Origin: a virus
Lineage: Duplodnaviria > Caudoviricetes
IMG/VR virus record: IMGVR_UViG_3300025121_000056
Location: 1-63,479 of that record
Length of the DNA stretch: 63,479 nucleotides
Direction: 5' to 3' (one strand)
The notes under the pieces are model-generated. The model saw only the letters and a list, made by a program, of their open reading frames with translations. It did no database searches and was not told the origin of the DNA. The position numbers and the translations under genes were made by a program. Numbering within the stretch: position 1 is the first letter of the stretch; each line of letters opens with the position of its first letter. Below, in pieces: positions 26,301-60,215 of the stretch.

Positions 26301-29252
26301 CTTTATTTAGACGTATTGAAAGCAAAACGATCTGACAAAGAATTATTATCAAGCGAAGTTAAGGAAGAAGAATCCAGACTTGAAAAAGGGACTGAAAGAT
26401 TAGAGAGTAAAATAGAAGACCCCGGATATTTAGAATACAAACGACAACGGACAAACATAAAAAATCAGATAAAAGAATTTAAGAGAGGTTGGGAAGCCGG
26501 CAAAAGAGATACCGAGCAAGAACTAACATTTTTGAAGAAACTCATTAGAGATTATGCACAGGAATATCTACCTAAGAATTTAATTAAATCTGAGATTACG
26601 CCTTTAATGACAAAATTAGCAGAAGCTAAGAAATTGGAAGATGTTGAGGAAGGATTTAACAGAATAGATAAAATAGTTCTTCACAACAATAAGAATTACT
26701 TACTTAAAAATATTTATGGTGCATTACAAACTTTCAGACCGGAGAAAGTAAAGGGTGTATTAAAGGGAAAACATTTAACGGCTCCGGAATATGACCAACT
26801 TTCAGACATCAGAAAAATAGTTTCTCTTAAACCAGACCAAGTAAATGAACTAACTACAAAATTATTTGAGAGGATAGAAACAGCCGGAGATGATTTTGAT
26901 GAAGCTGCTGAAGAATACCTTTACAGAATACAAACATTCTCAAACTTAAAAGAAAAATCAGTTGAAGAACTTTCTAAAGTGTTGGATGATTTAACTGAAA
27001 TAATTGCTACCGGGAAAACAAAACATCAACTAATACTTGAAGCTAAAAGAGAAAAACGAAAAGTATTGATAGATGAATTTGAAAAACTTATAACCGGCGG
27101 TAAAGGACTACTCAGCGAGGAAGAAGCAAGAGCCAAGGGATTAGATTTACAAAAGCACGAAAGTTTTATTAAAAAATTTGACCTTAATAACCAAAGTTTA
27201 GAGTGGTTATTTGATAATCTCAGTAAGTTTGATAAGGATTCTAAACCATTGGAGGGTGCATTAAATAAATATTTCATCCCTAAAGTACAGGAAAGTAGAA
27301 ATAATGAAAATGAAGGAACAACGAATTACTTTAAGGAAATCCACGATAAAGCCGAAGATGTCTTCGGAGTAAAGGGGCGCAAATTAGTGAGTCTCTTAAA
27401 CAAAAATACCGAGAGAGAAAAGACCGGAATATTTGTTAAAAAGGGCGAGAACAAGATCGAACTTGAATTAAGTCAAAACGAAGCATATAAAAAGTGGATG
27501 GAATGGCAAGATCCTTCACTAAAGCCAACATTAGAAAAGATGGGTTGGAATGAAGGAGTAATAAAACAAATTGAGAAGTGGCTCAAACCAGAAGTAAAGA
27601 AATGGGCTGAGTGGCAGATAAAAGAATTTTATCCAAAATATTATAAAACAGTAAATGATGTGTTTAGTAAGATGTTCTATGTGAATCTTCCCTTTAACGA
27701 ATATTATTCTCCGGTACAGAGAAGCGCGGAGGGTAAAGATAATTACGATGATCAACTATTGAGAAATAAAACTCAATATGCAAGTGTGATGAATGGGCAT
27801 TTAATGTCAAGAGTAAAAAACACCAGAGACTTAAAAATAATTGATGGTGATATTACATTAGCTAATCATTTGATAGTAATGGAACATTTTAAGAATTGGG
27901 CTGAGACAGTAAAAGAAATGCGTTCAGTTCTTCAAAGTGAAAAGATACAAAAAGCAATACTTCAATATCACGGCAAAACAGCACAGAGTATATTAAATGG
28001 ATTTATTAATGATTTAGCTAGAGGTGGAGAAGACAGGGCATTAGTTGTCAATTTCTTGGATAAGTTAAGAGGCGGATTTTCTAAAGCCGTATTAGGTGCA
28101 AATCCAGTAATTATGTTAAAACAATTTTCAAGTATGCCTGCCTTTGTTGGAGAAATACCAATTAGAGATTTTGCAAAAGGATTAACTTACTTTTTCTTAA
28201 ATCCAGGAAAAGCACTTGGGGAATTATCAGAAAGCAAAATGATGAAACACCGTTATCATCGAGGATGGGAAAGAGATGTTATTCAGGCATTAAAAAGATC
28301 AGTATCCAAGCAAATGGCGAACACAAAAAATTTCACAGATAATCTAATGATCTTCATTGAACTTGGAGATAAAGCAGCAAGTCATGTTGGCGGATATGGA
28401 GTTTACAGATACTATAAAGATAAATATTTAAGAGAAGGAAAATCACCAGAAGAAGCAAAAAGACAAGCCTTATTACAATTTGAATTGAGTGTAGGAAGGA
28501 CCCAACAAAAAGGGGATACTGAGGACTTATCGGCAATCCAGAGACTTGGTTCTTTCGGTAAATTATTCACAATGTTCCAAACACAACCAAATGCTTATTA
28601 CAGACAAATGAGTAATAATGTTAGGAATTTTTACCGCGGTAGAGGAAGAACAAACGCAGCCAAAAGGATATTTGTTTATCATTTTTTACTACCTTTTATT
28701 TTCCAATGGGTAGCGAGTGGACTCCCCGGACTACTAAGTAATTGGGATGATAAAGATAAAAAGCGGCAATTAAGAGCCTTGGCATTAGGTTCTTTTAATG
28801 GAATGTTGGCAATTGGAAATCTTATAGAAGATGGTATTGATTTTATAATAGGCGATATGAAGCAATATAATCCGCAAATGACACCAATTTTACAACCAAT
28901 AATTCAATTTGGTTATATGGCAAAAAATATTGCGAAGCTAATTGATGGCACAACCACCTTGAGCACAAATGAAGTGTTAAAGATCGTAGATGAAATAGTC
29001 TCAGTAGTAGGTAAAGCGAAGGGGATTCCTTATGATCCTATAAAGAGAACAATAAAAGGTGCAAAAAATATTTATGAGCAGGGTGGTGTAAAGTCTAGTG
29101 AAGATATATTAAAAACAATCGGATATAGCGATTATGCACTTGGCAACGATAAAGAAAAGGGTATAAAAAAATCAAATATTAACCAAAAACAATTATTCAA
29201 ACTCCCGAATTTTAGTAAAGAATTACAGGATAAATTAAAGATCAAGTTCTAA
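20340..29252 (+). CDS. Giant (2970 aa) ejection / polyvalent protein with ART-PolyVal-like domain
   Basis: ~25490-26110 encodes 'FKEFFGKSEVVD..NPLIVYHGT...GFHFG...YIRLENPL...GYDGLIY.N...YVVFDANQIKSA.GN.GEF'; helical C-terminus with 'LFTMFQTQPNAY'. Confidence 0.75.
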   Translation: MAKEKIIFDLGQIADRIREKYNTEWKTKEEEVKPSNGNDLSGIAQRLREKQNPSVLNQENIVKGNIPTNGNGFDPEGSGYDYKTAEKYGITPDSSDHYPSREPNTGLILKGKNHPTFNKTLEGEEKAGYVVYKGSDGRYYSKPKEQPKEDILSKVQSAYKPSIQERNLNVEGIGETFPEQTVTAKPSKESLADYQLSKVSQSDLLPELEIKKKELESTPKTSPNYNKKVNEFNSLLATFNDPKVRERELLDIANSKIPQPEHLAPQEYDESGNFKGYYKWVEPFIKAKNNALSMKDHPLVKAVNELSDYFTKKRFGQETKSSDLVRGITDAASAALSTSLGIYPAVAGFELASSFLREPLINASVKRLGLDRKKSEFLIDTISPFVFGAKVGLASLAGKDLEFLVDKTIPEDWSEEDKQRAKSLANQVGFWGTIYGSHRFQQNVDIYNRLGALPTKGQWGAINKYRNEPETLNRLIKGWTGGSYKVENPELKKEKQPIIQGLIEDIKPQDLNKTVRGTETFAEQTAEPIKSSEIPKEELADRDELFNIVRGSNDEATARKIAVGLTNKQAKFIITSGREGEEVNQEVIDGILKPKVSEAQDVQIGSTEKILQRQPEETGISRGERGGMERGEQGSEITGTQQEIPQGTNETKITKGDEEVSEFENIFDIRLSETTGEKIKFIYDMNKEIVDNPQENEPDEVESAQKIVKEIDDYANKTPEEKLTEPLPSEQKPTEKLPQQPQKSEVAQLPVSTKKVYPAVRDNQGKIYTGVTHPKAIEKMLGKSEDEITEKEYFNTSDNVDFGFVNEKGKFLTQDETRKYLGRNEIETMDAKDLADENLIKEPNPVPEVKAVEPQKITDRIDKLNGVEKTYWDGKNLKLTVYYDEKIPKDVIQVRVAKELSDNALTDAVPKITFLSTEKGTFAEEPTKSEAPTPVVSEKVVETKVEKQPYELSKEEFVDKTAQEYYEKDKGEKTKYIKRGLTEKSAQIEKSKADKDYFIEPDELQKGRFKVGHKVSGDAEGLTLDQYKDKYQKDFETLHKNNVDFAVSEGKKVSPKILKDYPDLAEKPTSLISEPEKETPVNYAGIKNFEKEAVTKLQENRKILDKLFEERDQRRNQELSPNDKRSALRNINSSVSELRAKGINARYENDNLYIDDKKIYPITTKKAENLNQVVIDNKEAETPFEKLTPEEQDRQTFLSDVISQKKFLPEELKRMLPVGFGQEKIDNAVKDIKEDGGKEQNRDAKIYRDFIKSVDDIFTRDGYITFTDGSKFTKEQYDNELEDYVYQRAKQQTDFEDDTFDFSLQDAIKNEEIDETTARELSLEQNPAEREELVKSIESEATSDNEVKLNEAVRKADEVVKPKKPSFLKPPKGSNAVIVKFKDGKQSKLPINDLSLIGNDYSKVDNISFGSVDFNKSGGLKWDSFKEIKNVNPNDQILKQDLDRTELQSLQDRKRHLELVLSETKDNEVIKKGQVELKDINNKLSKIRTKENQFDMFGDKQDQMSLFQKEHTRTRNVFEKMNDVEQQKFLRIVANGFLSENPDIKFGNVPKTSGRLASAIANITRQSILFDSRTSDMLTAIEEINHIVLSNPDMVSEWRAKAILRENGWDGRGDYREPNNNKTLEDAYENFADKNKEWYSKNKEATPKTLTEKFIVWLKNLWAKLAGYLHSKGFYTQAGFFENLYTGKLKQMGLKEQTERINEIRVENALAQKVEQTSSPEFKEFFGKSEVVDAKKNPLIVYHGTTGDFNTFEKGDVGFHFGSSDQANQRTMPIVKSGRKPLVRHEVMNGVKTIAQVTSEGANIIAAYIRLENPLRIRDNALTSPKDYAGAIIEEANRGNFDNKVANYIYANVERMLGSNYSLGSVKTKEAFDFIRDTLKGKGYDGLIYQNEYEDKEVKSDSYVVFDANQIKSAIGNSGEFSKSDNILKQKLEKINPELTQTLMQSLPDETNPMLQKGLEIFNLGKTKFTDWQKAMKEDFGKQNYQRLYLDVLKAKRSDKELLSSEVKEEESRLEKGTERLESKIEDPGYLEYKRQRTNIKNQIKEFKRGWEAGKRDTEQELTFLKKLIRDYAQEYLPKNLIKSEITPLMTKLAEAKKLEDVEEGFNRIDKIVLHNNKNYLLKNIYGALQTFRPEKVKGVLKGKHLTAPEYDQLSDIRKIVSLKPDQVNELTTKLFERIETAGDDFDEAAEEYLYRIQTFSNLKEKSVEELSKVLDDLTEIIATGKTKHQLILEAKREKRKVLIDEFEKLITGGKGLLSEEEARAKGLDLQKHESFIKKFDLNNQSLEWLFDNLSKFDKDSKPLEGALNKYFIPKVQESRNNENEGTTNYFKEIHDKAEDVFGVKGRKLVSLLNKNTEREKTGIFVKKGENKIELELSQNEAYKKWMEWQDPSLKPTLEKMGWNEGVIKQIEKWLKPEVKKWAEWQIKEFYPKYYKTVNDVFSKMFYVNLPFNEYYSPVQRSAEGKDNYDDQLLRNKTQYASVMNGHLMSRVKNTRDLKIIDGDITLANHLIVMEHFKNWAETVKEMRSVLQSEKIQKAILQYHGKTAQSILNGFINDLARGGEDRALVVNFLDKLRGGFSKAVLGANPVIMLKQFSSMPAFVGEIPIRDFAKGLTYFFLNPGKALGELSESKMMKHRYHRGWERDVIQALKRSVSKQMANTKNFTDNLMIFIELGDKAASHVGGYGVYRYYKDKYLREGKSPEEAKRQALLQFELSVGRTQQKGDTEDLSAIQRLGSFGKLFTMFQTQPNAYYRQMSNNVRNFYRGRGRTNAAKRIFVYHFLLPFIFQWVASGLPGLLSNWDDKDKKRQLRALALGSFNGMLAIGNLIEDGIDFIIGDMKQYNPQMTPILQPIIQFGYMAKNIAKLIDGTTTLSTNEVLKIVDEIVSVVGKAKGIPYDPIKRTIKGAKNIYEQGGVKSSEDILKTIGYSDYALGNDKEKGIKKSNINQKQLFKLPNFSKELQDKLKIKF

Positions 29253-38979: not shown

Positions 38980-39110
38980 AAATAACATATATGCAACTTA
39001 CCCGATTATGGTAGTTGCTTAGAAACTAAAATTAGAGGATAAATTTTAATGGATGAAAAAATAAAATTGAACGACCAAGATAATAATTCGGGTAGAGTTG
39101 CGAGTTATTA
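38980..39110 (-). repeat. attC-like site (most distal)
   Basis: + strand ATAAC(38982) ATATAT GCAACT TACCCGA ... TCGGGTA [G] AGTTGC GA GTTAT(39104). Confidence 0.8.
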
Positions 39111-39264
39111 TACGAGCCCGCTCGCTCTAAGAAATGAGTACAAAGCCGAAAGTGGATACGATATTCAACACGTTATTGACAACGAAGATGAATCTTGTAT
39201 TGGTGTACTTATTCACTATATCAAAAATCTCGAAGGCAAACTGGTAAGAAAAGCGGGTAAGTAA
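39049..39264 (+). CDS. Cassette ORF, hypothetical; starts inside the attC loop
   Basis: GAGG RBS and ATG lie within 38980-39110. Confidence 0.55.
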   Translation: MDEKIKLNDQDNNSGRVASYYTSPLALRNEYKAESGYDIQHVIDNEDESCIGVLIHYIKNLEGKLVRKAGK

Positions 39265-39313
39265 CTCACAATTCCTTGCCGGAGCCTGTTATTATAGCTC
39301 GCTCCGCTCGCTA

Positions 39314-39442
39314 TAATAACAATTTGGCAGTTGTGCCGCAAAAAACGAGAGAGAAAATTTAGTATGAAGAAAATATTTAATAACATAAAAAACCCAAACT
39401 TCTTAACCGATATTTTTTGTCGGTACGAAGTGCAAGTTATAT
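39314..39442 (-). repeat. attC-like site
   Basis: ATAAC AATTTG GCAGTT GTGCCG CAAAAAA ... TTTTTTG [T] CGGTAC [G] AAGTGC AA GTTAT. Confidence 0.8.
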
Positions 39443-39458
39443 TTTTTTTACGGTAATT

Positions 39459-39938
39459 ATGGGACTATCATCTCATCAAAACACCGTAGGGAAAAACCAA
39501 GAATGGCTAACGCCCAGATATATATTAGAACCGCTTGGAAAGTTTGATTTAGATCCGTGCGCACCAAAACGCAGACCGTGGGGAATAGCTAATAAGCATT
39601 TTACTGTGGATGGATTAGAACGTAAATGGTTTGGAAGGGTTTGGTTAAATCCACCGTTTGATAGATACACAATCGGTTTATGGTTAAAAAAAATGGCTGA
39701 ACATAATAACGGTATTGCATTGATCGCAGCACGAACCGAAACAGAAAACTTTTACAACTATGTGTGGGATGTAGCAACAGGAGTTTTGTTCATTAAGAAC
39801 AGACCCCACTTTTGTTATGTAAATGGGACGATGGCAAAATTTAATTCTGGAGCGCCAATATGCTTAGTAGCTTATGGTGAGATAAACTTAAAGATCTTAA
39901 TTGAAAGTGGCTTAGGAGTGACAGTAAAAAAAATATAA
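39459..39938 (+). CDS. Cassette-borne phage DNA N6-adenine methyltransferase
   Basis: 'EWLTP', 'FDLDPCA', 'VWLNPPF', 'ARTET..F'; stop TAA lies in the next TAAC box. Confidence 0.85.
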   Translation: MGLSSHQNTVGKNQEWLTPRYILEPLGKFDLDPCAPKRRPWGIANKHFTVDGLERKWFGRVWLNPPFDRYTIGLWLKKMAEHNNGIALIAARTETENFYNYVWDVATGVLFIKNRPHFCYVNGTMAKFNSGAPICLVAYGEINLKILIESGLGVTVKKI

Positions 39939-40195
39939 CGTAGTGGCAACTTACACGTTTGCGGCTCAATAAAATAAACTGGAGAATAGACCAATGATAC
40001 AAAAACTATTAGAAGAATTTGCAAAACCATTTTACCGATTGAACATTGGCGGTATAGAAATAATACCCGATTCTAAGAAGGAATTCACTGGAGTAAGCCA
40101 TCGAGAATTATTCAGTTTCATTAATGACCTTTTGAATGTGCGTGCATGTAAAATAAAAAAGAAGCAAGCAAATCGTATACAGTTGCAAGTTATGC
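39933..40195 (-). repeat. attC-like site with long coding loop
   Basis: ATAAC GTAGTG GCAACT TACACG TTTGC ... GCAAA [T] CGTATA [C] AGTTGC AA GTTAT. Confidence 0.75.
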
Positions 40196-40374
40196 AGAAA
40201 ATTGCGGAGTTGATAGAATACCACAAACAAGAAGCATCAGAACCATATTTAACATTAAAGAGCATATCAAAATTAAAGAAGTTTGAGTTAAAGGTATTGA
40301 ATAACTACAAAAGGAAAATGAAGAAGAAACATCAAGACTGGATTAAAATATTAGAGAGCAATTTTACGGCATAA
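39994..40374 (+). CDS. Cassette ORF, hypothetical; about half is encoded within the attC
   Basis: GGAG RBS in the loop; reads through the arm as ANRIQLQV; TAA in TAAC. Confidence 0.6.
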   Translation: MIQKLLEEFAKPFYRLNIGGIEIIPDSKKEFTGVSHRELFSFINDLLNVRACKIKKKQANRIQLQVMQKIAELIEYHKQEASEPYLTLKSISKLKKFELKVLNNYKRKMKKKHQDWIKILESNFTA

Positions 40375-40469
40375 CGCCGAAGCTAAATGGCGCGAGTGAT
40401 AAAATAGAAATAACTAACTAAACCAAAAACTGCCACGTAACGAGCGTCCATTTGAGCGACTTGTTATGT
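40369..40469 (-). repeat. attC site with canonical geometry
   Basis: Minus strand: R'' ACATAAC, spacer AAGTC, L'' GCT[C]AAAT, GG[A]CGC ... GCGCC, L' ATTTAGC, spacer TTCGGC, R' GTTATGC. Confidence 0.9.
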
Positions 40470-40490
40470 GGCAAAACAGAGCGAGGATTT

Positions 40491-40877
40491 ATGAAAACGG
40501 ATTTGAAGGTAAGCGCGGATATAAACGCAGGGATGGATCAACTCGGAAAATTTTTGAACGATTTATCGGTAAAACTTGGAATAGCCGGAAAAGAATTGTT
40601 GCCATACTACGCAAAGAGAGTATTCTTGCGCGGACTACAAAGAATAATTTTCGGGGCATTGGTAATGATATTGCCATATCTATTATTTTTTGTAAATCCA
40701 TTTCCAGAAACGTATAAAGATTATTGGATGTTGGCAAGAATACTGTTTTGCATAACGACAACGTGGAAAGGGCTTGATTGGATTACTGATTGGATTGAAG
40801 AAATTGGCGCACCGGAATCGGTTGCGATACAATGGTTACTGGATGAGTTCAGAAATTTTATTAAAGCGGTAAGATAA
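40491..40877 (+). CDS. Cassette ORF, membrane protein
   Basis: GAGG RBS, two hydrophobic helices. Confidence 0.65.
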   Translation: MKTDLKVSADINAGMDQLGKFLNDLSVKLGIAGKELLPYYAKRVFLRGLQRIIFGALVMILPYLLFFVNPFPETYKDYWMLARILFCITTTWKGLDWITDWIEEIGAPESVAIQWLLDEFRNFIKAVR

Positions 40878-40899
40878 AAAGCGCGGTGGCGTTTTGTCC

Positions 40900-41029
40900 A
40901 CATAACGGAGTTGCAATTGTGCCGATTGCGGACACTGTAAATAAAATTTTATGAACGAAATAACTAACATATTAAACAACAAAAAATGCCGATCAAGAAA
41001 GCAATTCGGACACGAATTGCGAGTTATAT
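40900..41029 (-). repeat. attC-like site
   Basis: ATAAC GGAGTT GCAATT GTG CCG ATTGC ... GCAAT [T] CGG [A] CAC [G] AATTGC GA GTTAT. Confidence 0.8.
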
Positions 41030-41054
41030 TTTTTGGCGGCGGGAGATTGTAAAA

Positions 41055-41273
41055 ATGACAAACAAAGAAATTAAAGAAAACATTTTAGAACAAGCAGAAG
41101 AGCTTGAAAAACTTTTAACCGACAGAATTAGTGAGCTATATAATTTAAGCGGAGCTGCACAAGGACAGTTCTTTCAAGGTGCAAGACACACTTTTTGTTA
41201 TTACAGAGATTATACTTGGAAAATACGGGACTTGGCGAGACAGATTGCAGAAGTAAAGCCAGCCGCCAAATAA
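41055..41273 (+). CDS. Cassette ORF, hypothetical
   Basis: GGGAG RBS before ATG 41055; ends AAK-stop in the cassette end repeat. Confidence 0.6.
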   Translation: MTNKEIKENILEQAEELEKLLTDRISELYNLSGAAQGQFFQGARHTFCYYRDYTWKIRDLARQIAEVKPAAK

Positions 41274-41406
41274 ATATAACGGTTCTTTGCCTAAACCGAT
41301 TGCGGACTTAGAAAAACAATGATAAATAATTTATTAACTAAAAATAGCCGACCAAACTCAAATCAAGAATTGCGAAAGCAATTCGGATTTGAGGCAATAG
41401 TTATAT
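41274..41406 (-). repeat. attC-like site
   Basis: ATAAC GGTTCT TTGCCT AAA CCG ATTGC ... GCAAT [T] CGG [A] TTT [G] AGGCAA TA GTTAT. Confidence 0.8.
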
Positions 41407-41438
41407 TTTTTGGCGGCGGACATTAAAGGAGAAACAGA

Positions 41439-41582
41439 ATGGAAACATTAGCAGTCCTTAACGGAATATTTTTTATAGTAAATATTACAATAAACGCTAT
41501 GCAAGGAAATTGGGCGGCAACAGCAGGATGGTTTTGTGCATTGTGTTGGGTATTTAATTGGTATATAAAAGCCGCCAAATAA
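41439..41582 (+). CDS. Cassette ORF, 47-aa membrane peptide (not in the ORF track)
   Basis: AAGGAG RBS; METLAVLNGIFFIVNITINAMQGNWAATAGWFCALCWVFNWYIKAAK. Confidence 0.65.
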   Translation: METLAVLNGIFFIVNITINAMQGNWAATAGWFCALCWVFNWYIKAAK

Positions 41583-41776
41583 ATATAACGGAGTGGCGGC
41601 TAAACTGCTGCGGAAATAAAAGAAAGGAAATAATAAGATGGACGTTGAGAAAATTAAAAAGTGGATTGCGAACATAGAGCATTTTGAACCCGATTTAAGT
41701 TTAGGGACGTGTAGGACATTAGGTGACATTAAAAAAGAACTTGACAAGAGCAGTCAGTTTGAGCCGCAAGTTAAGG
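41583..41776 (-). repeat. attC-like site with coding loop
   Basis: ATAAC GGAGTG GCGGCT AAACTG CTGC ... GCAG [T] CAGTTT [G] AGCCGC AA GTTAA. Confidence 0.8.
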
Positions 41777-41946
41777 TGCAAATTGCGGAAATTACAGAGG
41801 ATTATATAGAAATTGCTTTTAATAAAATTGTTACAGTAACAGATAGTAAGGATTTTTTTGAAAGAGATGGCTTCGCAGAATGCAACAAAGTTCAATTACA
41901 CGCAATTATTATGCAAATATGGTTACATAGCAATTTGTCAACATAA
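41638..41946 (+). CDS. Cassette ORF, hypothetical; starts inside the attC
   Basis: AAGGA RBS in the loop; reads the arm as SSQFEPQV; TAA in TAAC. Confidence 0.6.
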   Translation: MDVEKIKKWIANIEHFEPDLSLGTCRTLGDIKKELDKSSQFEPQVKVQIAEITEDYIEIAFNKIVTVTDSKDFFERDGFAECNKVQLHAIIMQIWLHSNLST

Positions 41947-42068
41947 CAGATCAGCGATAAGACGCAAAAGAGTAAGAAGGAAAATTTAATTAATGAACAA
42001 ATTTAATAACATAATAACTACAAAAATTGGAACGAATACTTTTGTCGTTCTTGATTGCGTAGTTAGTT
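41941..42068 (-). repeat. attC-like site
   Basis: ATAAC AGATCA GCGAT AAGA CG CAAAAG ... CTTTTG [T] CG [T] TCTT [G] ATTGC GTA GTTAG. Confidence 0.8.
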
Positions 42069-42098
42069 TGCTTTGTGGCGGACACAGGAGATAATAAA

Positions 42099-42497
42099 TT
42101 GGAAGAGAAAATAATATTAAAAGGGATAGTAGCAACGGGTTATATGATGGACAACTTTAGCGGAATAGACTTAATACAAGAGGACGGCTATAAAGTTGAC
42201 TTGATAACCAGATTGAAAGAGTTTGTATATAATTATGGTAAAAAAATAACTGTTAGATATTGGGTTGCAGAGAAAAGAGAAGAAGATGAGAATGTAAAAA
42301 AGAATACGTTAAAGAAAATTATGGGAGTATTAGAGGCGGAATACGAAACAAGTTATTATGAGTATAGCGAATATACAAGTGTAACTGATTACGATACAGT
42401 ATTTAACATTGACAAACACAACCTATATGCGGAATTGATGGGAGTGCAAGGGAAATATTTGATATTAGAAGTGGAGAAAGCCACAAAGTCAAACTAA
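42099..42497 (+). CDS. Cassette ORF, hypothetical phage protein
   Basis: AGGAG RBS before TTG 42099; 'YSEYT...HNLYAEL...GKYLILEV'; TAA in TAAC. Confidence 0.65.
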   Translation: MEEKIILKGIVATGYMMDNFSGIDLIQEDGYKVDLITRLKEFVYNYGKKITVRYWVAEKREEDENVKKNTLKKIMGVLEAEYETSYYEYSEYTSVTDYDTVFNIDKHNLYAELMGVQGKYLILEVEKATKSN

Positions 42498-42617
42498 CGG
42501 CGTGGTTTTTCACTTGCCGCATCGGAAGATAAATGAATGAAAATATTAAACAAAATACTAAACATTAAATTAACAATCGCCTCGCTATTCGCGGTCAAGT
42601 GCAAAAACTTGTTATGC
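42492..42617 (-). repeat. attC-like site (attI-proximal)
   Basis: CTAAC GGCGTG GTTTTT CACTTG CCGC ... GCGG [T] CAAGTG [C] AAAAAC TT GTTAT. Confidence 0.8.
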
Positions 42618-42644
42618 TTTTGCGGGCGGAGAAGGAGAAGATAA

Positions 42645-42866
42645 ATGGAAGTCATAACAGGAAAAATTTATAAGTGTTCTTTTTGTGGACATCGAACCCT
42701 AACAAAAAAAGGTATGGAATTACACGAGGGAACATATTGCAAAAAAAACAAGAATTCAATAGCATTAATGGATATAGAAGATTATGGAGAATCACAAGAA
42801 ATCAGACGTGGTGATTATTCCTCAGACGAACTAGCGAGAAATAATGCTTGGCAAATGGGTATTTAG
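42645..42866 (+). CDS. Cassette ORF, small zinc-finger protein
   Basis: 'YKCSFCG...MELHE..YCKKN'; AAGGAG RBS. Confidence 0.7.
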   Translation: MEVITGKIYKCSFCGHRTLTKKGMELHEGTYCKKNKNSIALMDIEDYGESQEIRRGDYSSDELARNNAWQMGI

Positions 42867-42884
42867 AACGCAAGCCCGCAATAA

Positions 42885-42950
42885 GCATAACTATCTCTTA
42901 TATAGAATTTATTCTTGATAATATTTATGAACAAACATAAACGGGAATTA
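42885..42950 (-). other. attI-like site (crossover G/TT at 42891 on the minus strand)
   Basis: The last TAAC box has no attC hairpin partner and lies 60 bp before the intI-like start. Confidence 0.6.
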
Positions 42951-42951
42951 T

Positions 42952-43098
42952 ATGTTAGAAGATGATTTCAGATCGGTTTGCAGATTAAACCACTTTGCTA
43001 CAAAGACAGAAAATACTTACTGGAGTTTTTGTTTGCAATTTATTCTATTCCATAATAAGAAACATCCGGCGGAACTTGGTAAAAAAATTGGTTATTAA
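42952..43098 (+). pseudogene. intI: Integron integrase N-terminal fragment (48 aa)
   Basis: MLEDDFRSVCRLNHFATKTENTYWSFCLQFILFHNKKHPAELGKKIGY* matches the IntI N-terminal pattern (LDQ.R..IR..HYS.RTE..Y..W...FI.FH..RHP..LG). Confidence 0.85.
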
Positions 43099-43242
43099 TC
43101 ACAATATTCTTATTTTTAGTTAGCTTATGAAACGTATCTTAACAATATTTTTATTATTTGCCCCAAAAGATAAGGAATCTTGCCCTAAAGGTACGATTCA
43201 TAAGCACTTATTTTGCGGGGCATTTTTTATTGGAATGTTATA

Positions 43243-44145
43243 ATGAAAATATGTCGAATTTGTTTAATCGAGAAAAAAGAAGACGAGTTTTATCCGAGGA
43301 TGGGAGTTTGTAAAATTTGCCACAATAAAAGATGCAGAGATTGGGCAATCAAAAATCCCAAAAGAATATTGAGCATTAATCTAAGAGCAAAAAATAAGGC
43401 TAATAAATTACGGTATGATTGGTTATCAAAACATAAACGAAGACATCGGGGTATATACGTAACAAATGGGAAATTCCAAGCAACTTATCAACATAAAAGG
43501 AAACGATATTATTGTGGTCTTTTTGATACTATGGAACAAGCAATAAGGGCATATAGAAAAAAAGAGAAAGAAATTACCGGCAAAAATAGAATTCCTCTAA
43601 AACCAACTTTTAATTACAAAAATAAAACCGTGAAAATTCCGTTGTGCAATTATGGAAGAGCAAATTCTAAACATTATGGTAAATTCACAACGATTATTGA
43701 TTTAGGCGATTATAAAAAAATTAAAGATTATTCTCTATCAATTAATGGTGGTTATGTTGTCTTATCTATAAACGGATCGTTGGTCAGATTGCATAACTTT
43801 TTATTTGATAGCGAAAATACAGATCATAGGAATGGGAATAAACTAGACAACAGAAAATCTAATTTTAGAAAAGCAACTCATACCCAGAACGCAAGAAACA
43901 GTAAAAAACCTGTCCATAATGGACTTTATCATAAGAACACAAGTCCATATAAAGGTGTAACAAAAAGAAACGATTATATGTATAAGTATAGAACAAGAAT
44001 AAGGGTTGATGGAAGATTAATAAGTTTGGGCACTTATGATAACGAAATAGTCGCAGCAAAAATTTACGATGCAGCGGCAAGAAAATATTTCGGTGAATTT
44101 GCTTGTTTGAATTTTCCTCAGAGACAAGAAAGGGGGGCAATTTAA
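43243..44145 (+). CDS. HNH endonuclease with AP2 DNA-binding domain(s)
   Basis: 'DHRNGNKLDNRKSNFRKAT..QN', 'SPYKGV...LGTYDNEIVAAKIYDAAARKYFGEFACLNF'; N-terminal CxxC pairs. Confidence 0.9.
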   Translation: MKICRICLIEKKEDEFYPRMGVCKICHNKRCRDWAIKNPKRILSINLRAKNKANKLRYDWLSKHKRRHRGIYVTNGKFQATYQHKRKRYYCGLFDTMEQAIRAYRKKEKEITGKNRIPLKPTFNYKNKTVKIPLCNYGRANSKHYGKFTTIIDLGDYKKIKDYSLSINGGYVVLSINGSLVRLHNFLFDSENTDHRNGNKLDNRKSNFRKATHTQNARNSKKPVHNGLYHKNTSPYKGVTKRNDYMYKYRTRIRVDGRLISLGTYDNEIVAAKIYDAAARKYFGEFACLNFPQRQERGAI

Positions 44146-44147
44146 TA

Positions 44148-44255
44148 TTGTACACTCACATTTCTCAAAAGCAGATTAAGAATTACAAGAGTCCATTGGA
44201 TTTAATGAATAGTAATAGAAATTCTGAAACACTAAAAATTTATAAAATAGCATGA
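44148..44255 (+). pseudogene. intI: Integrase C-terminal fragment with catalytic Tyr
   Basis: LYTHISQKQIKNYKSPLDLMN... matches the tyrosine-recombinase/IntI tail IYTH(V/I)....SPLD. Confidence 0.8.
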
Positions 44256-44357
44256 CCGAACACGACAAAGTACAAAATGATATTTCCGGTTCATTAAAAT
44301 CCGAACTAAAGGCAGCAGAGTTATTTGGCGAATTCGCTAATCTAAATAATATTATAA

Positions 44358-44873
44358 ATGAATAATGAAGAAACACATATTGCCGTCCAAAACGATATTC
44401 TTTTATCGAGAGAATCGGAGTTGAAAGCCGCCGAGATCTTCACTGCTTCCGGATATTTGGTTTATGTCCAATTTATAAAACCTCAAGCAAAAACATTAGA
44501 AGATATAGAAAGCAATTCGGACTTTGGAGATATTATTATTTTTAAGCCCGGTGGTTCTAATGCAGTTGTGGAAGTAAAAAGATTATCGAGTGCAAACGCC
44601 TTCGCATATTTTTGTGAGGCAAAGGATTTTCGGAACGGGATCATTGTTGATCGGAAACAAACGTATGACAAGAAGTTCATCAAGCCGGTGTTATATCTAA
44701 CATTCAATCATCCTATGAGTTATTTCTTTCTGATAGAGTGTAAGAACAAAGAAGACTGGACCGTAAGAAAAGAGTATTGTGTTACCACAAAGAAAATGGA
44801 AGATTATTATGTGAGCAAAGCTATTGATTGTCAGTTCTATGAGACTGAAGATAAATTAAAAACAAGTCCTTAG
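44358..44873 (+). CDS. PD-(D/E)XK nuclease-like protein
   Basis: 'DFGDIII...VVEVKR'. Confidence 0.55.
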   Translation: MNNEETHIAVQNDILLSRESELKAAEIFTASGYLVYVQFIKPQAKTLEDIESNSDFGDIIIFKPGGSNAVVEVKRLSSANAFAYFCEAKDFRNGIIVDRKQTYDKKFIKPVLYLTFNHPMSYFFLIECKNKEDWTVRKEYCVTTKKMEDYYVSKAIDCQFYETEDKLKTSP

Positions 44874-44937
44874 TTGGACACACTCCAAGCGAGAGATGAG
44901 ATCGCATCAAGTCTCTTGCTCTTATTAAGGGAAGAAT

Positions 44938-46707
44938 ATGAAACTTAATATTTCAAAAGATTTTAGTTTACCGATTGATGCAGTTACACAAACCTTTTCA
45001 ATATTAGCTAAACGAAGGGTGGGGAAAACATATACCGCTTCAGTTATGGCCGAGGAAATGGTAAAAGCGAAACTTCCATTTGTTGTTTTAGATCCTACTG
45101 GTGCATGGTGGGGATTACGTTCCGGTAAAGATGGTCGGTCCGAAGGTGGTTTGCCTGTTTATGTCATTGGTGGCGAACATGGTATTCCTTTGGAACCGAC
45201 TGCCGGGAAAGTAATAGCCGAACAAGTAGCAACTTATCCTTCTTTTTATGTAATAGATATATCTCAATTTGAAAGTAATGCAGCACAAGATAGATTTGCA
45301 ACAGATTTTGCTGAAAGACTTTATCGAATAAAAGAAAAAAATCGTGAAGTAATGCACCTTTTTATTGACGAAGCTGATGCTTTTGCACCACAAAGACCTA
45401 TGCCCGGGCAACAAAGAATGTTGGGTGCGTTTGAAGTGTTGGTAAGAAGGGGTGGAATACGTGGTATCGGTATTACATTAATTACTCAACGTCCAGCAGT
45501 TATAAATAAAAACGTACTTACTCAAACAGAGTGTTTAATCGTTCTACAAACTACTTCTCCGCAAGATCAAGATGCTATTGAAGAATGGGTAAAACGGAAT
45601 GGTAGTGATGAGGAAAGAAAAACTTTAATGTCTTCTCTCGCTTCATTAAAAAGAAGTGAGGCGTGGATTTATTCACCTGCTTGGTTAGAAGTATTCAAAC
45701 GAATCAACATTAGAGAACGTGATACATTTAATTCTTCCGCAACTCCGAAAGCCGGGGAAAAACAAATTAATAATCCGTCCCTTAAACAAGTTGATATAGA
45801 AAAATTAAGTCAGCAGATCAAAGCAACTATTGAGAAAACAAAAGAGAACGATCCAGAGATACTGAAAAGGAAAATCCGGGAACTTGAAAGGAATCAGAGT
45901 ATTAAAAATGTTGTTAGTCCTGATATGCTCTTAGTCAATAATCTGAAGGAAACAATAAAAGGACAGGATAAAGAGATCATCCAATTACGGAAACAGTTGT
46001 TACAAACGAATGAAACTATTAAACTCACATTCCAAAAGACTTTGAAAACAGTAAAATCTTATGTGGATAAAATAGATTTTTCAGAAATAGATATTCCTAT
46101 AATTGTAGTAAACACACAAAATGAATTTTTCAAAATGGCTACAACTCCAAACACTGATAATTCTGTTATAGGGAAGATAATAATTAAGGAAAAATTTAAT
46201 CAATCTCCTTGTAAAACAACAATCCGTGATGGAGAAATAAAACTTAAAGACGGGGCTAAAAGAATGTTGGCTGCTGCTGTAAAGTGGAATCCTCTTGGAA
46301 TAACTGGTTCTCAAATGAAAACACAAGCCGGGATAAAGCACGTTAATACTTTTAGCACTTATAAAACTCAATTAATTAGCGTGGGGTTGTTGTTTCTAAA
46401 TAGTGGTAGCGGTTTATTCTACCCTACTGAAGAAGGGATAAAATATTCTGGCGATACTCCGAGTGCAGAAACAACAGAAGAAGTATTGGCGTTATGGTTG
46501 CCTCACTTCAAAGATGGTGCAAGAAGAATGTTGAGGTTTTTAGTAACTCTAGACGGTAAGGCAATCACACACGAATCTTTGATGCAAGAAGCGCGCATCG
46601 AACATCCGAATACCTATAGTACATATAAGACACAATTAAAGTCTGCTCATCTTGTGGTAGAAAATGACGGTATGATTTCAGCAAATAAGGAAACATTATT
46701 CTTATGA
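44938..46707 (+). CDS. HerA/DUF87-like P-loop ATPase with duplicated C-terminal wHTH-like module
   Basis: Walker A AKRRVGKT, 'VLDPTG', Walker B LFIDEAD, 'ITQRP'; twice 'KDGA.RML...T(F/Y)STYKTQL'. Confidence 0.85.
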   Translation: MKLNISKDFSLPIDAVTQTFSILAKRRVGKTYTASVMAEEMVKAKLPFVVLDPTGAWWGLRSGKDGRSEGGLPVYVIGGEHGIPLEPTAGKVIAEQVATYPSFYVIDISQFESNAAQDRFATDFAERLYRIKEKNREVMHLFIDEADAFAPQRPMPGQQRMLGAFEVLVRRGGIRGIGITLITQRPAVINKNVLTQTECLIVLQTTSPQDQDAIEEWVKRNGSDEERKTLMSSLASLKRSEAWIYSPAWLEVFKRINIRERDTFNSSATPKAGEKQINNPSLKQVDIEKLSQQIKATIEKTKENDPEILKRKIRELERNQSIKNVVSPDMLLVNNLKETIKGQDKEIIQLRKQLLQTNETIKLTFQKTLKTVKSYVDKIDFSEIDIPIIVVNTQNEFFKMATTPNTDNSVIGKIIIKEKFNQSPCKTTIRDGEIKLKDGAKRMLAAAVKWNPLGITGSQMKTQAGIKHVNTFSTYKTQLISVGLLFLNSGSGLFYPTEEGIKYSGDTPSAETTEEVLALWLPHFKDGARRMLRFLVTLDGKAITHESLMQEARIEHPNTYSTYKTQLKSAHLVVENDGMISANKETLFL

Positions 46708-46933
46708 CAGAAGAAACAAACAAAATAGTAGATTCAATAGAGAAAGATAATAATGAATTAGAGTACAGAATAAACATTAGCATTGATTTGTTCTGGAAAA
46801 TCGCACCAGAGAGCACCCTTGAAAAAATGAGACAAGAAAAATTAAAATTCATCTTGAATTATAATGCAGAAGCATTTTTTAGAGATAAACAAAATTGTGC
46901 AAAATTTATGAACATGATAGCAAACATAAAAAC

Positions 46934-47395
46934 ATGAATAACAAAAAAGCAAAACTAATCCGGAGAACCACAAAAGAAGAAATAAAAACAAATTATGATT
47001 CTCTTTATGAAGCGGTTGCGGATAACGGAATAATAGTACGGTTTATTTTTGATGGTAAAGTATTAATCAAAGCAAAAGAGCAAAAGTTTACAATATTTAA
47101 TAATTACGTTAATGATCTCACTGGTGCAGCAAGAACTAGTCCGGACGTAAAGGTTCAGAAAGCAATTCACAAGTTTAGCAGAAAAGTAGGTAAAAGCATC
47201 AACAAAGAAATGAAGAATGATTTACAGTTGCTTTATAAAACAATCTGTGATCAGGTTTGGTATATAAGATTTGCCTTTGCAATAAAGGTATTGGCAAAAA
47301 TAAGTTCATTCAAGTTTGTTCTGACTAATAAATACGTTACTGAAGGACAAGAAAAAATAATTGATGAAGTAAGAAGTCTGGTAAAAGAAGTATAG
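46934..47395 (+). CDS. Hypothetical protein
   Basis: ORF with ATGA coupling to 46704. Confidence 0.5.
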   Translation: MNNKKAKLIRRTTKEEIKTNYDSLYEAVADNGIIVRFIFDGKVLIKAKEQKFTIFNNYVNDLTGAARTSPDVKVQKAIHKFSRKVGKSINKEMKNDLQLLYKTICDQVWYIRFAFAIKVLAKISSFKFVLTNKYVTEGQEKIIDEVRSLVKEV

Positions 47396-47589: not shown

Positions 47590-48660
47590 ATGATTGATAA
47601 TAAAACATTGCAGGAATATCTGGACAACAAATTAATTACGAAACAAAAACATCCTTCTTTAGACCTATTTATTTACAACTATACACCAGAATGTGTTTTC
47701 TCTAAGAAGTGGGATAAGGTCACAAAAACTTGTAGGGGCTTAATTTTAGATATTAACAATGAAATTGTTGCACGACCATTTGAAAAGTTTTTTAACTATG
47801 GAGAGATTGAAGAATCTTTGCCTAATAGAACGCCTAAGATTTATAAAAAACTTGATGGTAGTTTAATTATTGTAACTTGGTATAATAACGATTTGATTGT
47901 TTCAACAAGAGGAAGTTTTGTTTCGGAACAATCACAAATTGCAAGAAAAATTTTATTAGCAAATTACCCGCTAATAGAAAAAATTAAATCTGATGAAGGA
48001 TTCACTTATTTATTTGAATATACAAGTCCATCCAATAGAATTGTAATTTTATATCCCGAAGAAAGATTAACACTTTTAGCCGTTATTATAAATTGGGATG
48101 GTAGAGAATGTAATCTCGATTATTGGAGATCGTTTGATTTTATCAAAGTAGTTGACGAATATAAAGCGGAATGGAGTGAGGACACAATCCAACAGTTGCT
48201 TGATCTTAACCTGAATAACGAAGAAGGATTTGTTCTGAGATGGGACAATAATTTTAGGGTTAAAGTGAAGTTTGCTGAGTATTTTAGATTGCACAAATTG
48301 ATAACAGGACTTAACGAAAAAACTATTTGGGAATTTCTAAGAGACGGCAAAGATGAAGATGAATTAATAAAACAAGTACCGGAAGAATTTGAAAAATGGG
48401 TTCAGGGAATTGCAGATAATTTATATGGCAATTATAATAAGATTTTTGATGAATGCTTAAATATTCTTAATGAAAATATGTTAAGAGAATTATCACGGAA
48501 AGACGCTGCCATAATAATTATCGAGAAAGCAAAACAATATCAATCTATTTTATTCCCCATGTTAGACGGTAAAGAACGACTTATAACTGAAAATATTTGG
48601 AAACTCATAAAACCAAAATCAAACAAATATTTCAAAGAAATAATCGTAGAGGATATATGA
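47590..48660 (+). CDS. T4 Rnl1-like RNA ligase
   Basis: 'CRGLILD', 'RPFEKFFN', motif I KLDGS, 'TRGSF', 'TYLFE', motif IV EEGFV, motif V RVKVK. Confidence 0.9.
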   Translation: MIDNKTLQEYLDNKLITKQKHPSLDLFIYNYTPECVFSKKWDKVTKTCRGLILDINNEIVARPFEKFFNYGEIEESLPNRTPKIYKKLDGSLIIVTWYNNDLIVSTRGSFVSEQSQIARKILLANYPLIEKIKSDEGFTYLFEYTSPSNRIVILYPEERLTLLAVIINWDGRECNLDYWRSFDFIKVVDEYKAEWSEDTIQQLLDLNLNNEEGFVLRWDNNFRVKVKFAEYFRLHKLITGLNEKTIWEFLRDGKDEDELIKQVPEEFEKWVQGIADNLYGNYNKIFDECLNILNENMLRELSRKDAAIIIIEKAKQYQSILFPMLDGKERLITENIWKLIKPKSNKYFKEIIVEDI

Positions 48661-57243: not shown

Positions 57244-58569
57244 ATGGCGACAATTAACACTAAACAAAAATCCAATCTTAAAACACACGAGGGCGCACCA
57301 GCCAAAATCATTAATGCAGAACAAAGATTAAGACGTTCTGTTATGGCTTGTATGCTTTGGGAAAATTCATTTTACGAAGACGGTCAATCAATAGCACAAA
57401 GAATTAAGGAAGCCGTAACACAAGTCAAACCAGAAATAGTTGCTAATATTGCAATAGAAGCAAGAGAACAGTTCAAATTAAGACACGTTCCGCTTTTACT
57501 TGTGAGAACATTGGCAAAATTAAAATATCCAGTTGCTGATGTTTTAGAAAAGGTAATCCAAAGACCGGACGAAATAACAGAATTCCTTGCAATCTATTGG
57601 GAAGAAAAAAGACAACCACTTTCCGCACAGGTGAAAAAAGGTTTAGCAAAAGCATTTAATAAGTTCAATGAATATCAGTTTGCTAAATATGATAGAGATG
57701 GTTCGGTTAGATTAAGAGATGCTTTGTTTTTGTCTCACGCCAAACCTAACGATAGGAATTCCTTAACTCCAAAAGATATATTAACACCAAAGGAAGTCTT
57801 GTTCAAAAAAATTGTTGATCAAACCTTGGAAATACCGGATACTTGGGAAGTCCAACTTTCTGCGGGTAAAGATAAAAAAGAAGTTTGGGAACGATTACTC
57901 AAAGAGAACAAACTTGGGGCGTTGGCTCTATTAAGAAATCTTAGAAATATGGAGTCAGCAAATGTTTCAAAATCCTTGATTAAAGAATCTGTTTCTAAAA
58001 TGAAAACAGAAAGAGTTTTGCCGTTCAGATTTATTTCTGCCGCTCGATATGCTTCTCAACTTGAGCCGGAATTAGAAGTAGCAATGTTCAAGTGCTTGGA
58101 CGGATTTGGGAAGATGTTAGGCAAGACAATCCTTTTAGTTGATGTTTCTGGTTCGATGGGGGGCCCAATTTCTGCTAAGTCTGATTTGAAAAGATTGGAC
58201 GCGGCTTGTGGATTGGGAATGCTGTTAAGGGAAATTTGCGAGGAAGTAGAAATACTAACATTCTCAAATCAAGTTATACAAGTCCCGCCAAGACGTGGAT
58301 TTGCATTAAGAGATGCTATTGTCGGATCGCAACAACATTCAGGGACATATTTAGGGCAAGCAATTAAAACCGTTGACGATAACCGGACTTATGACCGAAT
58401 GATTGTAATAACTGATGAACAGTCTCACGACAAAGTTTCCGATTCTAAAGGCAGGGGATATATGATAAACGTTGCCTCTAACCAGAACGGAGTTGGTTAT
58501 GGAAAATGGTTGCACGTTGATGGATTTTCAGAATCTATTATAAATTACATCCAAGAATATGAAAGATAA
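57244..58569 (+). CDS. rsr: Ro60 / TROVE-domain RNA-binding protein with vWA domain
   Basis: 'THEGAPA', 'FNEYQFAKY', 'TWEVQLS', 'ALLRNLRN', 'LPFRFISA', MIDAS DVSGSM, 'VITDEQ'. Confidence 0.92.
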   Translation: MATINTKQKSNLKTHEGAPAKIINAEQRLRRSVMACMLWENSFYEDGQSIAQRIKEAVTQVKPEIVANIAIEAREQFKLRHVPLLLVRTLAKLKYPVADVLEKVIQRPDEITEFLAIYWEEKRQPLSAQVKKGLAKAFNKFNEYQFAKYDRDGSVRLRDALFLSHAKPNDRNSLTPKDILTPKEVLFKKIVDQTLEIPDTWEVQLSAGKDKKEVWERLLKENKLGALALLRNLRNMESANVSKSLIKESVSKMKTERVLPFRFISAARYASQLEPELEVAMFKCLDGFGKMLGKTILLVDVSGSMGGPISAKSDLKRLDAACGLGMLLREICEEVEILTFSNQVIQVPPRRGFALRDAIVGSQQHSGTYLGQAIKTVDDNRTYDRMIVITDEQSHDKVSDSKGRGYMINVASNQNGVGYGKWLHVDGFSESIINYIQEYER

Positions 58570-59621: not shown

Positions 59622-60215
59622 ATGGCAACAGAAGAGAAAAAAGAAAAAAATAAATCTGCTGAAGGGAAAGAACAAACCGAAATAGAGAAAGTCCTAGCTG
59701 GGCTTAAACTTAACCCCAAACAATTAGCTTTCTGCGAAGAATACATTTTAACAATAAACGCAACAAAATCTTATCAAAAGATATATGACTGTGATTATGA
59801 GACGGCAAAAGCATCCGGTCCAAGACTGTTAGCAAATGTTAGAAAATACATCAATTTGAGAATGTCGGATATTTATGAGAATCTTGGAATAACACCAGAG
59901 AGAATCCTAAAAGAATATGCAAGGATTGCTTATTTCGATCCGCAGAAATTATTGAACGAAGACGGTACGCTAAAACAGATGAGTGAAATAGATGAAGATA
60001 CGAGAGCTGCGATAGCCGGGGTTGAAGTTGAGAACTTGTTTGAAGGCAGGGGCAAAGACAGAGAATGCATTGGCACAGTCCATAAATTAAAAATTGTAGA
60101 TAAGAAAGGCGCTCTTGATAGTGTCGGTAAACACAGACAGATGTTTATTGAGAAAGTAGAAGTTGAACATAAGGGCGAAGTAAATCTTATTGTCAACGGA
60201 TTGAAGAGAATTTGA
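59622..60215 (+). CDS. terS: Terminase small subunit
   Basis: 'LNPKQLAFCEEY...NATKSY', 'ILKEYARIAYFD', 'DKKGALDSVGKHRQMF'. Confidence 0.9.
   Translation: MATEEKKEKNKSAEGKEQTEIEKVLAGLKLNPKQLAFCEEYILTINATKSYQKIYDCDYETAKASGPRLLANVRKYINLRMSDIYENLGITPERILKEYARIAYFDPQKLLNEDGTLKQMSEIDEDTRAAIAGVEVENLFEGRGKDRECIGTVHKLKIVDKKGALDSVGKHRQMFIEKVEVEHKGEVNLIVNGLKRI

Follow-up and report, generated by a model that had tools for sequence, protein, structure and literature searches.

The DNA analysed here (hereafter the window) is IMG/VR virus record IMGVR_UViG_3300025121_000056 in its full length (63,479 nt, linear, estimated 76% complete, G+C 35% (0.351)), which is a tailed-phage genome carrying a true integron. 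Beside its array of gene cassettes, the integron-integrase gene (intI) is reduced to its two ends, and the core of the enzyme is replaced by the gene of an HNH-AP2 endonuclease. The locus as a whole is probably best read as a phage integron whose intI core was replaced by an HNH-AP2 homing-endonuclease unit, leaving an array that resembles a cluster of attC sites lacking an integron integrase (CALIN) and would need an integron integrase (IntI) supplied in trans. The identity as a phage was assigned because major head, terminase and portal proteins are encoded and the record is held as a virus in IMG/VR. The features that carry this reading are the following.

42952 to 43098, + strand: integron-integrase N-terminal remnant, open reading frame (ORF) of 48 aa, with homology over 42952–43086 (residues 1–45), then 3 foreign codons and a stop
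43087 to 44144, + strand: insert of 1058 nt replacing integrase codons 46–290, G+C 0.309 vs 0.351 in the window
43159 to 43222, + strand: structured hairpin (GCCCCA...UGCGGGGC) and a U-run after it, 20 nt upstream of the endonuclease start codon
43243 to 44145, + strand: gene of the HNH-AP2 endonuclease, start codon ATG at 43243 giving 300 aa (alternative TTG at 43213)
Within the endonuclease protein: HNH motif at about residues 194–218, AP2 domain at about residues 229–298
44145 to 44255, + strand, frame 3: integron-integrase C-terminal remnant, (I)LYTHISQKQIKNYKSPLD...LKIYKIA plus stop, in full (I)LYTHISQKQIKNYKSPLDLMNSNRNSETLKIYKIA-stop
38982 to 42890: attC cassette array with seven complete sites and two half-sites
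42887 to 42951, − strand: terminal ATAA/C core (42887–42891), then 61 nt to the intI start codon; putative attI/first-cassette junction (minus strand ...G/TTATGC)

A clade profile was built from 13 full-length integron integrases and searched, with all filters off, against the 4004 six-frame stop-to-stop peptides (at least 8 residues) of the whole window. Two matches were obtained, at 42952–43086 (hidden Markov model (HMM) positions 1–45, E 3.6e-20) and at 44145–44252 (HMM positions 291–324, E 4.3e-9), and the next best peptide was at E 0.29. HMM positions 46–290, which comprise the box I Arg, the Lys, the box II His-x-x-Arg and His, and the integron-specific extra domain, were found in none of the six frames of the window. 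An earlier reading made from the letters and their ORFs (the sequence-only reading) had let an IntI-like N-terminus end at about 43085 and its C-terminus resume within 3 nt of the HNH stop, with the R-K-H-x-x-R core absent and about 1.06 kb in its place, and had proposed an HMM search of both fragments as a check; the profile search bore out each of these positions, with the C-terminal piece starting at 44145 on the last base of the endonuclease stop codon (44143–44145).

By itself, the N-terminal piece matched Pfam Phage_int_SAM_4 (PF13495; E 1.2e-8, 35.7 bits at a cut-off of 27) over profile positions 3–43 of 85, i.e., the first half only of the N-terminal SAM-like DNA-binding domain. It also matched the integron-integrase models TIGR02249 (positions 4–43) and PRK15417, and its sole match in the PDB was the Vibrio integron integrase IntI4 (2a3v, residues 10–48). 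The piece and P0001 share 74% identity; P0001 is a truncated relative among the integron integrases, continues into a normal integrase and has relatives (P0002–P0014) that form a tight clade of proteins of 322–331 residues. The C-terminal piece, in which the Tyr (YTHI, 44151–44153) is the only catalytic residue kept, had no match of its own in Pfam, NCBIfam or the PDB and aligned end to end with the last 34 residues of this closest integrase clade; its tail (...LKIYKIA) is specific to the clade and does not occur in more distant integron integrases. All five clade proteins tested lay above the TIGR02249 cut-off (321–343 bits vs 265) and had the IntI-specific additional domain, whereas the integrase pieces of the window scored 19–24 bits and lack this domain. 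The retained 45 + 36 codons were free of further scars, frameshifts or stops. Judged by these alignments, the two pieces represent opposite ends of a single integron-integrase gene, and intI is now a pseudogene, i.e., the remnant of a TIGR02249 member and not a member itself. Because the catalytic residues are missing, the phage cannot excise or insert cassettes with its own enzyme. A TIGR02249 search of the whole record at E 10 returned the N-terminal piece only, and no tyrosine recombinase other than the intI remnant was detectable in the 63.5-kb record.

The insert opens with an AT-rich stretch, and the hairpin that follows had a fold z-score of −2.58, with 1 of 200 shuffles folding equally well. 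This leader accompanies the endonuclease gene, as a 94% identical copy of the unit in metagenome run X12 (starting at 43162) includes it. The encoded protein matched phrog_99 (E 2.3e-40) and four other HNH families of PHROG, and its PDB matches were the AP2/ERF domains of WRI1 (E 5.4e-10) and ERF096 (E 1.6e-4); sub-stretches matched HNH_3 (E 1e-4) and AP2 (E 0.0019), both below the Pfam cut-offs. PF13392 and PF00847 occur in its relatives from the protein collection, one of which is named 'HNH endonuclease/AP2 domain'. The label HNH-AP2 and the leader hairpin, both proposed in the sequence-only reading, proved right. Beyond the endonuclease's own 90% cluster, the closest protein was 42% identical, and IMG/VR yielded 28 relatives with identities of up to 47%, leaving aside one match of 24 residues at 71%. 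When the X12 copy was compared with the window over the endonuclease ORF, 26 of the 37 listed differences fell on third codon positions, and these 37 amounted to 10 amino-acid changes in 188 codons (11 further differences lay outside this count); because of this third-position excess and the few amino-acid changes, the gene is taken to be under purifying selection. Promoter and terminator scans around the locus gave results at or below shuffle expectation.

For the region 41500–45500, Logan contigs of four runs (X1, X9, X10 and X12) were compared with the window. Of 14 listed metagenome runs from groundwater and soil (7 studies in all), 11 contained at least half of the sampled words of 42700–44500. 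A 21.8-kb contig of X1, which is a possible source of the record, spans the whole locus, and a 2417-nt contig of X9, which is not flagged as a source, covers 42937–45353 with 0 differences and bridges both junctions; a 595-nt contig of X10 crosses the left junction, and 44074–44206 is uncovered in that run, so that it holds no information on the right one. Since contigs of independent runs bridge them, the junctions are real and not assembly artefacts, which disposes of the misassembly that the sequence-only reading had named as a way in which it could fail. In X12, a diverged endonuclease unit was found (43162–43806 with 39 differences and 43838–44155 with 13). The second X12 contig extends 8 letters past 44155, and these give Thr-His-Val and the first base of another codon in the integrase frame, Thr-His-Val being the clade consensus (YTHV(T)). 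The right endonuclease/integrase junction hence appears, from this short overlap, to be common to a lineage 4–6% diverged and to be older than that divergence. Matches at 43000–43023 (X1) and 43039–43073 (X9), with joints whose sides measure 21–26 letters, were very short and too small to interpret.

The sequence-only reading had alluded to an array, and this proved to be a real attC cassette array beside the integrase remnant. It consists of short + strand genes parted by imperfect palindromes bounded by ATAAC ... GTTAT, as listed here.

38982 to 39108, 39316 to 39440, 40371 to 40467 and 40902 to 41027: complete attC-like sites A, B, D and E
41276 to 41404, 41943 to 42066 and 42494 to 42615: complete attC-like sites F, H and I
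About 39935 to 39965 and about 41585 to 41615: attC half-sites C and G, one arm lost, core-side arm kept
39417 to 39938, + strand: methyltransferase cassette gene (phrog_111, E 5.6e-31)
39994 to 40374, 40452 to 40877, 40986 to 41273 and 41439 to 41582, + strand: cassette ORFs
41638 to 41946, 42075 to 42497 and 42645 to 42866, + strand: cassette ORFs
41261 to 41282 and 41570 to 41591 (also 13730 to 13760 of L148 and 6330 to 6356 of L149, two other IMG/VR contigs treated below): coding core-stem extension

The whole window was scanned for TAAC...GTTA pairs 45–140 nt apart, which were scored by the complementarity of their inner arms and compared with 20 shuffles of the window. The five best pairs of the window (scores 25–28) all lie inside 38982–42890; pairs scoring at least 24 numbered five in the window and 0–3 in each shuffle (10 in total), and the best pair per shuffle scored 19–32. 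Arm alignments were anchored at the cores (unanchored global alignment failed for B, D, E, H and I, and minimum-energy folding recovered the full hairpin for only some sites). One arm architecture was obtained in this way for all seven complete sites (about 96–128 nt) and for the site of L148: past the AAC core comes an asymmetric internal loop, then a stem of 3–7 bp (about 6 in most) and an extra base. The first extra base stands exactly 8 nt past the AAC core and the second after six paired positions, followed by further stem; a third bulged base lies between the two in 4 of these 8 sites. The extra bases are always on the minus-strand arm, and the stem sequences vary among sites with the pairing kept. 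As a control, the same arm alignment was applied to the class 1 integron AB571791 (intI1, dfrA12, aadA2), where the top (coding) strand of the aadA2 attC reads TAAC, 8 nt, an extra C, 6 bp and an extra A; the 8-nt spacing was also seen in the dfrA12 site by reading of the printed alignment. Going by this alignment, the geometry of the phage sites is that of canonical attC: the minus strand is the top strand, and the + strand is the folding bottom strand with extrahelical G and T. Because C and G are reduced to half-sites, two cassette pairs are fused, which is a sign of erosion.

intI lies at the canonical end of the array, 61 nt past the last core site and transcribed away from the array, as in the class 1 control; 42891–42951 is a predicted attI, on account of its position only. 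A second X9 contig has 42870–42966 in common with the window (7 differences) and differs upstream, which is compatible with a different first cassette at this attI. PHROG matches of the + strand cassette ORFs were phrog_111, 20281, 18748 and 1486, and database support was obtained for the methyltransferase and for the ORFs at 42075, 42645 and 40452. All cassette ORFs with such support lie on the + strand, i.e., the bottom strand, and are inverted relative to the attC polarity, which gives them the same direction as intI and the rest of the phage genes. As the cassettes run antisense to the usual direction, they would not be served by a Pc promoter, and their genes are presumably expressed by phage transcription instead. 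Pairing reaches about 12 bp beyond the 7-bp core (e.g., GCCGCCAAATAAATATAAC / GTTATATTTTTTGGCGGC), and the outer part of this core stem (GCCGCCAAATAA...) is coding: in three different phages, it specifies the C-terminal end (...AAK-stop) of several cassette proteins that are otherwise unrelated. In three other cassette ORFs, the TAA within ATAAC serves as the stop codon.

Two further observations were made on the array. Just before site B, at 39288–39320, there is a near-perfect palindrome (GTTATTATAGC...GCTATAATAAC) with two core motifs in opposite order, possibly what is left of an emptied cassette or a scar of recombination. Directly after three attC hairpins, runs of 6–8 T were seen on the + strand (41023–41034, 41400–41411 and 39436–39449), and on a transcript these hairpins would, from their sequence, resemble intrinsic terminators between cassettes.

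A 19-mer that ends two cassettes of the window was also found in two other IMG/VR contigs, L148 and L149. In L148 (record G002), 143 nt made up of an attC and a little flanking sequence show 95.8% identity to site F; a different gene comes next and ends with the same core extension. The two phages are related but distant, with the head protein 49%, the terminase 35% and other proteins 22–52% identical between G002 and the window. L149 (record G003) holds one gene with the same end as the cassettes together with a degraded arm; at E 1e-5, G003 and the window have no protein in common. In run X10, a loose end corresponds to the L149 cassette. No trace of an integron integrase was found at E 1 in G002 or G003, both of which are fragments. 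The occurrence of one attC type on different phage backbones argues for cassette exchange at some point, by whichever enzyme. Upstream of the lone cassette-like gene in G003 (L149 5650–5830), about three tandem copies of a ~60-nt unit were noted, each with a TTGACT...TATAT promoter-like pair.

The replacement of the integrase core by the endonuclease gene is thus a direct observation, and we infer homing as its cause and the 'frozen' state of the array. The claim of the sequence-only reading that a homing endonuclease displaced the integrase was accordingly upheld for the replacement, which sits exactly in the core's place; homing is a presumed cause, no intact allele having been found. In the favoured reading, a unit of hairpin leader and HNH-AP2 gene would have been brought into intI, either through repair of a break (with flanking homology) or through illegitimate recombination, and the intI core would have been lost at the same time or soon after. 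The resulting allele would have been inherited since then in the phage population and may have been driven. If the target of the homing enzyme lay in the lost core, this allele would be without the sequence to be cut and would be immune; in mixed infections, it could then bring about the conversion of intact alleles, the intI ends that it retains serving as homology arms. Of the attC sites, the seven that are structurally intact might still be usable by IntI from the host or from a co-infecting phage. The decay of two of the nine attC sites to half-sites fits disuse, and the canonical geometry of the other seven, one of which is 96% identical in a divergent phage, fits recent exchange. A wider picture is put forward tentatively, and we do not expect it to hold in full: groundwater phages would keep an integron of their own, with its own IntI clade (tail ...LKIYKIA), extended-stem attC sites, cassettes flipped to follow the single direction of phage transcription and trade among unrelated phages, and HNH-AP2 endonucleases would home into intI and drive integrase-null alleles that freeze the arrays.

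An intact allele was sought along several routes. blastn of 40000–47000 against 50,697 phage records gave no match. In IMG/VR, no match was obtained with P0001, with the upstream exonuclease or with a degenerate pattern for the clade motif WQYLFPAK, and the clade alignment returned at least 580 relatives, all at 45% identity or less among the matches listed. P0001 had 3 matches in species genomes (30% identity or less) and P0013 had 33 in metagenome contigs (46% or less), and tblastn of P0003 against phages yielded 15 records, all below 60% identity, among them the integrons in phages described in PMC9892861 (Qi et al. 2023). When the ATPase gene downstream of the remnant was followed in IMG/VR, no relative with an intact intI was found and the search ended in a single distant phage without integrase. 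The related phages with intact intI at this locus, for which the sequence-only reading had suggested looking, were hence not found in the collections or in the four runs.

Several points weigh against the favoured reading. No intact, empty allele with the same flanks was present in the four runs compared or in any collection searched, and as a consequence homing and the order of events can only be inferred. The close integrase clade is not placed in a phage or bacterial genomic context. Near the IMG/VR loci of the endonuclease relatives, a tyrosine recombinase was found in 0 of 28, and the endonuclease family is without a general link to integrases. The sharing of the right junction in X12 amounts to 8 letters in one low-depth contig (depth 3). 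The attC call was made by a custom geometry test and not by IntegronFinder's attC model, and, the record being 76% complete, another recombinase could lie off the contig.

Among the alternatives, a decay in two steps survives best. Here, intI would have died by deletion or neutral loss and the endonuclease would have landed later, or the insertion would have come first and the deletion after, with an endonuclease that has no specificity for intI. The lack of an empty-site allele and of cleavage data, the 28 endonuclease loci without a neighbouring recombinase and the two half-sites of an eroding platform all agree with such a course; however, the insert is flanked immediately by the two breakpoints, of which the right one falls on the stop codon of the endonuclease gene (44145), no other scars, frameshifts or stops occur in the 45 + 36 codons that are left, and the right junction seems to have been kept in a diverged lineage. 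We regard two-step decay as less likely than the favoured reading. Capture of the endonuclease unit in the manner of a cassette, by integrase-type recombination at a secondary site in intI, is suggested by a GTTAT core exactly at the left breakpoint (43091–43095) and by TAAC (43140) and GTTA (43237) on either side of the leader hairpin. This pair, however, scores 18, which is less than the best pair of each of the 20 shuffles (19–32), and the bulge spacing of the array sites (8 nt and 6 bp) is missing from the hairpin; neither a core site nor an attC-like half-site occurs at the right breakpoint, and an insertion would not delete 735 nt, which makes this course very improbable. An assembly chimera or chance similarity, conceivable for a metagenome-derived record whose C-terminal piece matches nothing in standard libraries, has a negligible chance of being right in view of the contigs of several runs that bridge the junctions without differences, the recurrence of the locus in 11 of 14 runs (at least half of the sampled words) and the clade-profile E-values of 3.6e-20 and 4.3e-9.

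The mob and seg genes of T4 are free-standing HNH homing endonuclease genes of phages, and degraded intI genes beside arrays are found in bacterial chromosomes, where point mutations, frameshifts and insertion sequences are the usual causes. The locus of the window resembles such degraded chromosomal intI in combining an integrase pseudogene with a surviving array, and differs from it in the homing endonuclease gene within intI. With classical integrons (class 1 AB571791 and sedentary chromosomal ones), it has in common intI beside attI, the attC polarity, AAC/GTT cores, extrahelical bases at 8-nt and 6-bp spacing and stop codons within the core site; unlike them, it has cassette genes on the bottom strand (in all cassettes with database support), a core-stem extension of about 12 bp coding ...AAK-stop, a phage as carrier and a dead integrase.

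In phage ICP1, free-standing HNH nuclease genes have been described at exchange boundaries (PMC10448857). Like the T4 and ICP1 genes of this kind, the endonuclease gene of the window is short and stands alone, combines HNH with a DNA-binding module, is preceded by a hairpin of its own, is placed between conserved sequence blocks and is under purifying selection; unlike them, it is neither intergenic nor situated in an intron or intein and replaces 245 recombinase codons, and homing is only presumed for it.

Integron parts in phages are already known. In a screen of 10,705 phage genomes (PMC9892861), three complete integrons and one In0 were reported, all in temperate phages and all of host type, together with 17 CALINs, some of them in virulent phages, some with methyltransferase cassettes, and truncated intI genes beside cassette arrays; phage attC sites were reported to recombine with IntI1. 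The window agrees with these phages in its attC array, its methyltransferase cassette and a truncated intI adjoining the cassettes. In contrast, the complete integrons described there are host segments captured by temperate phages and the CALINs are without integrase trace, whereas the array of the window keeps an attI-like junction and both intI ends, and what inactivated the gene can be seen. Neither 'homing' nor 'HNH' occurs as a word in the text of that paper, and no published case of a homing endonuclease inactivating an integron integrase was found (supplementary tables, including those with the 17 phage CALINs, not covered).

Integrons are known as bacterial platforms of gene capture, and the few phage cases in print are mostly captured host fragments or integrase-less clusters. 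The locus described here is an integron with canonical site geometry in an uncultivated groundwater tailed phage, with cassettes inverted to suit phage transcription, and the near-identical attC in a divergent phage points to cassette traffic among phages. It offers a concrete route to integrase-less arrays, namely a homing endonuclease gene that replaces the integrase core. If the endonuclease does target intI, this would be an example from nature of a selfish element putting another out of action, and, with intI as the homing site, a direct conflict of two kinds of mobile element inside a virus.

As a separate observation, at least 580 stretches in IMG/VR encode integron-integrase-like proteins, with 37–45% identity to the clade in the 80 loci kept (L034–L113), and many of these loci sit within viral contigs of 30–50 kb and not at contig ends. 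This suggests that IntI-type integrases are commoner in viral contigs than the four cases in print.

In the remainder of the window, the long ORFs lie nearly all on the + strand, and besides the genes listed here a tail fibre-like protein was found among the tailed-phage markers.

7152 to 8432: major head protein
60212 to 61720: large terminase
61729 to the end of the window: portal
742 to 816: tRNA-Met, the sole Rfam match in the window

Directly downstream of the integrase remnant (44938–46707), a HerA/FtsK-like ATPase is encoded (DUF87, AAA; weak match to a terminase-family PHROG), whose only IMG/VR relative (46% identity; L002, 10004–11629) belongs to a distant high-GC phage with terminal repeats and without integrase. 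One ORF of 2970 codons (20340–29252) lies within the structural region. An RNA ligase (47590–48660; phrog_562, E 4e-71) and a protein of an RNA-binding family (57244–58569; phrog_850, E 1.5e-51) are encoded in the same phage as the tRNA-Met gene, and the three may form an RNA-repair module.

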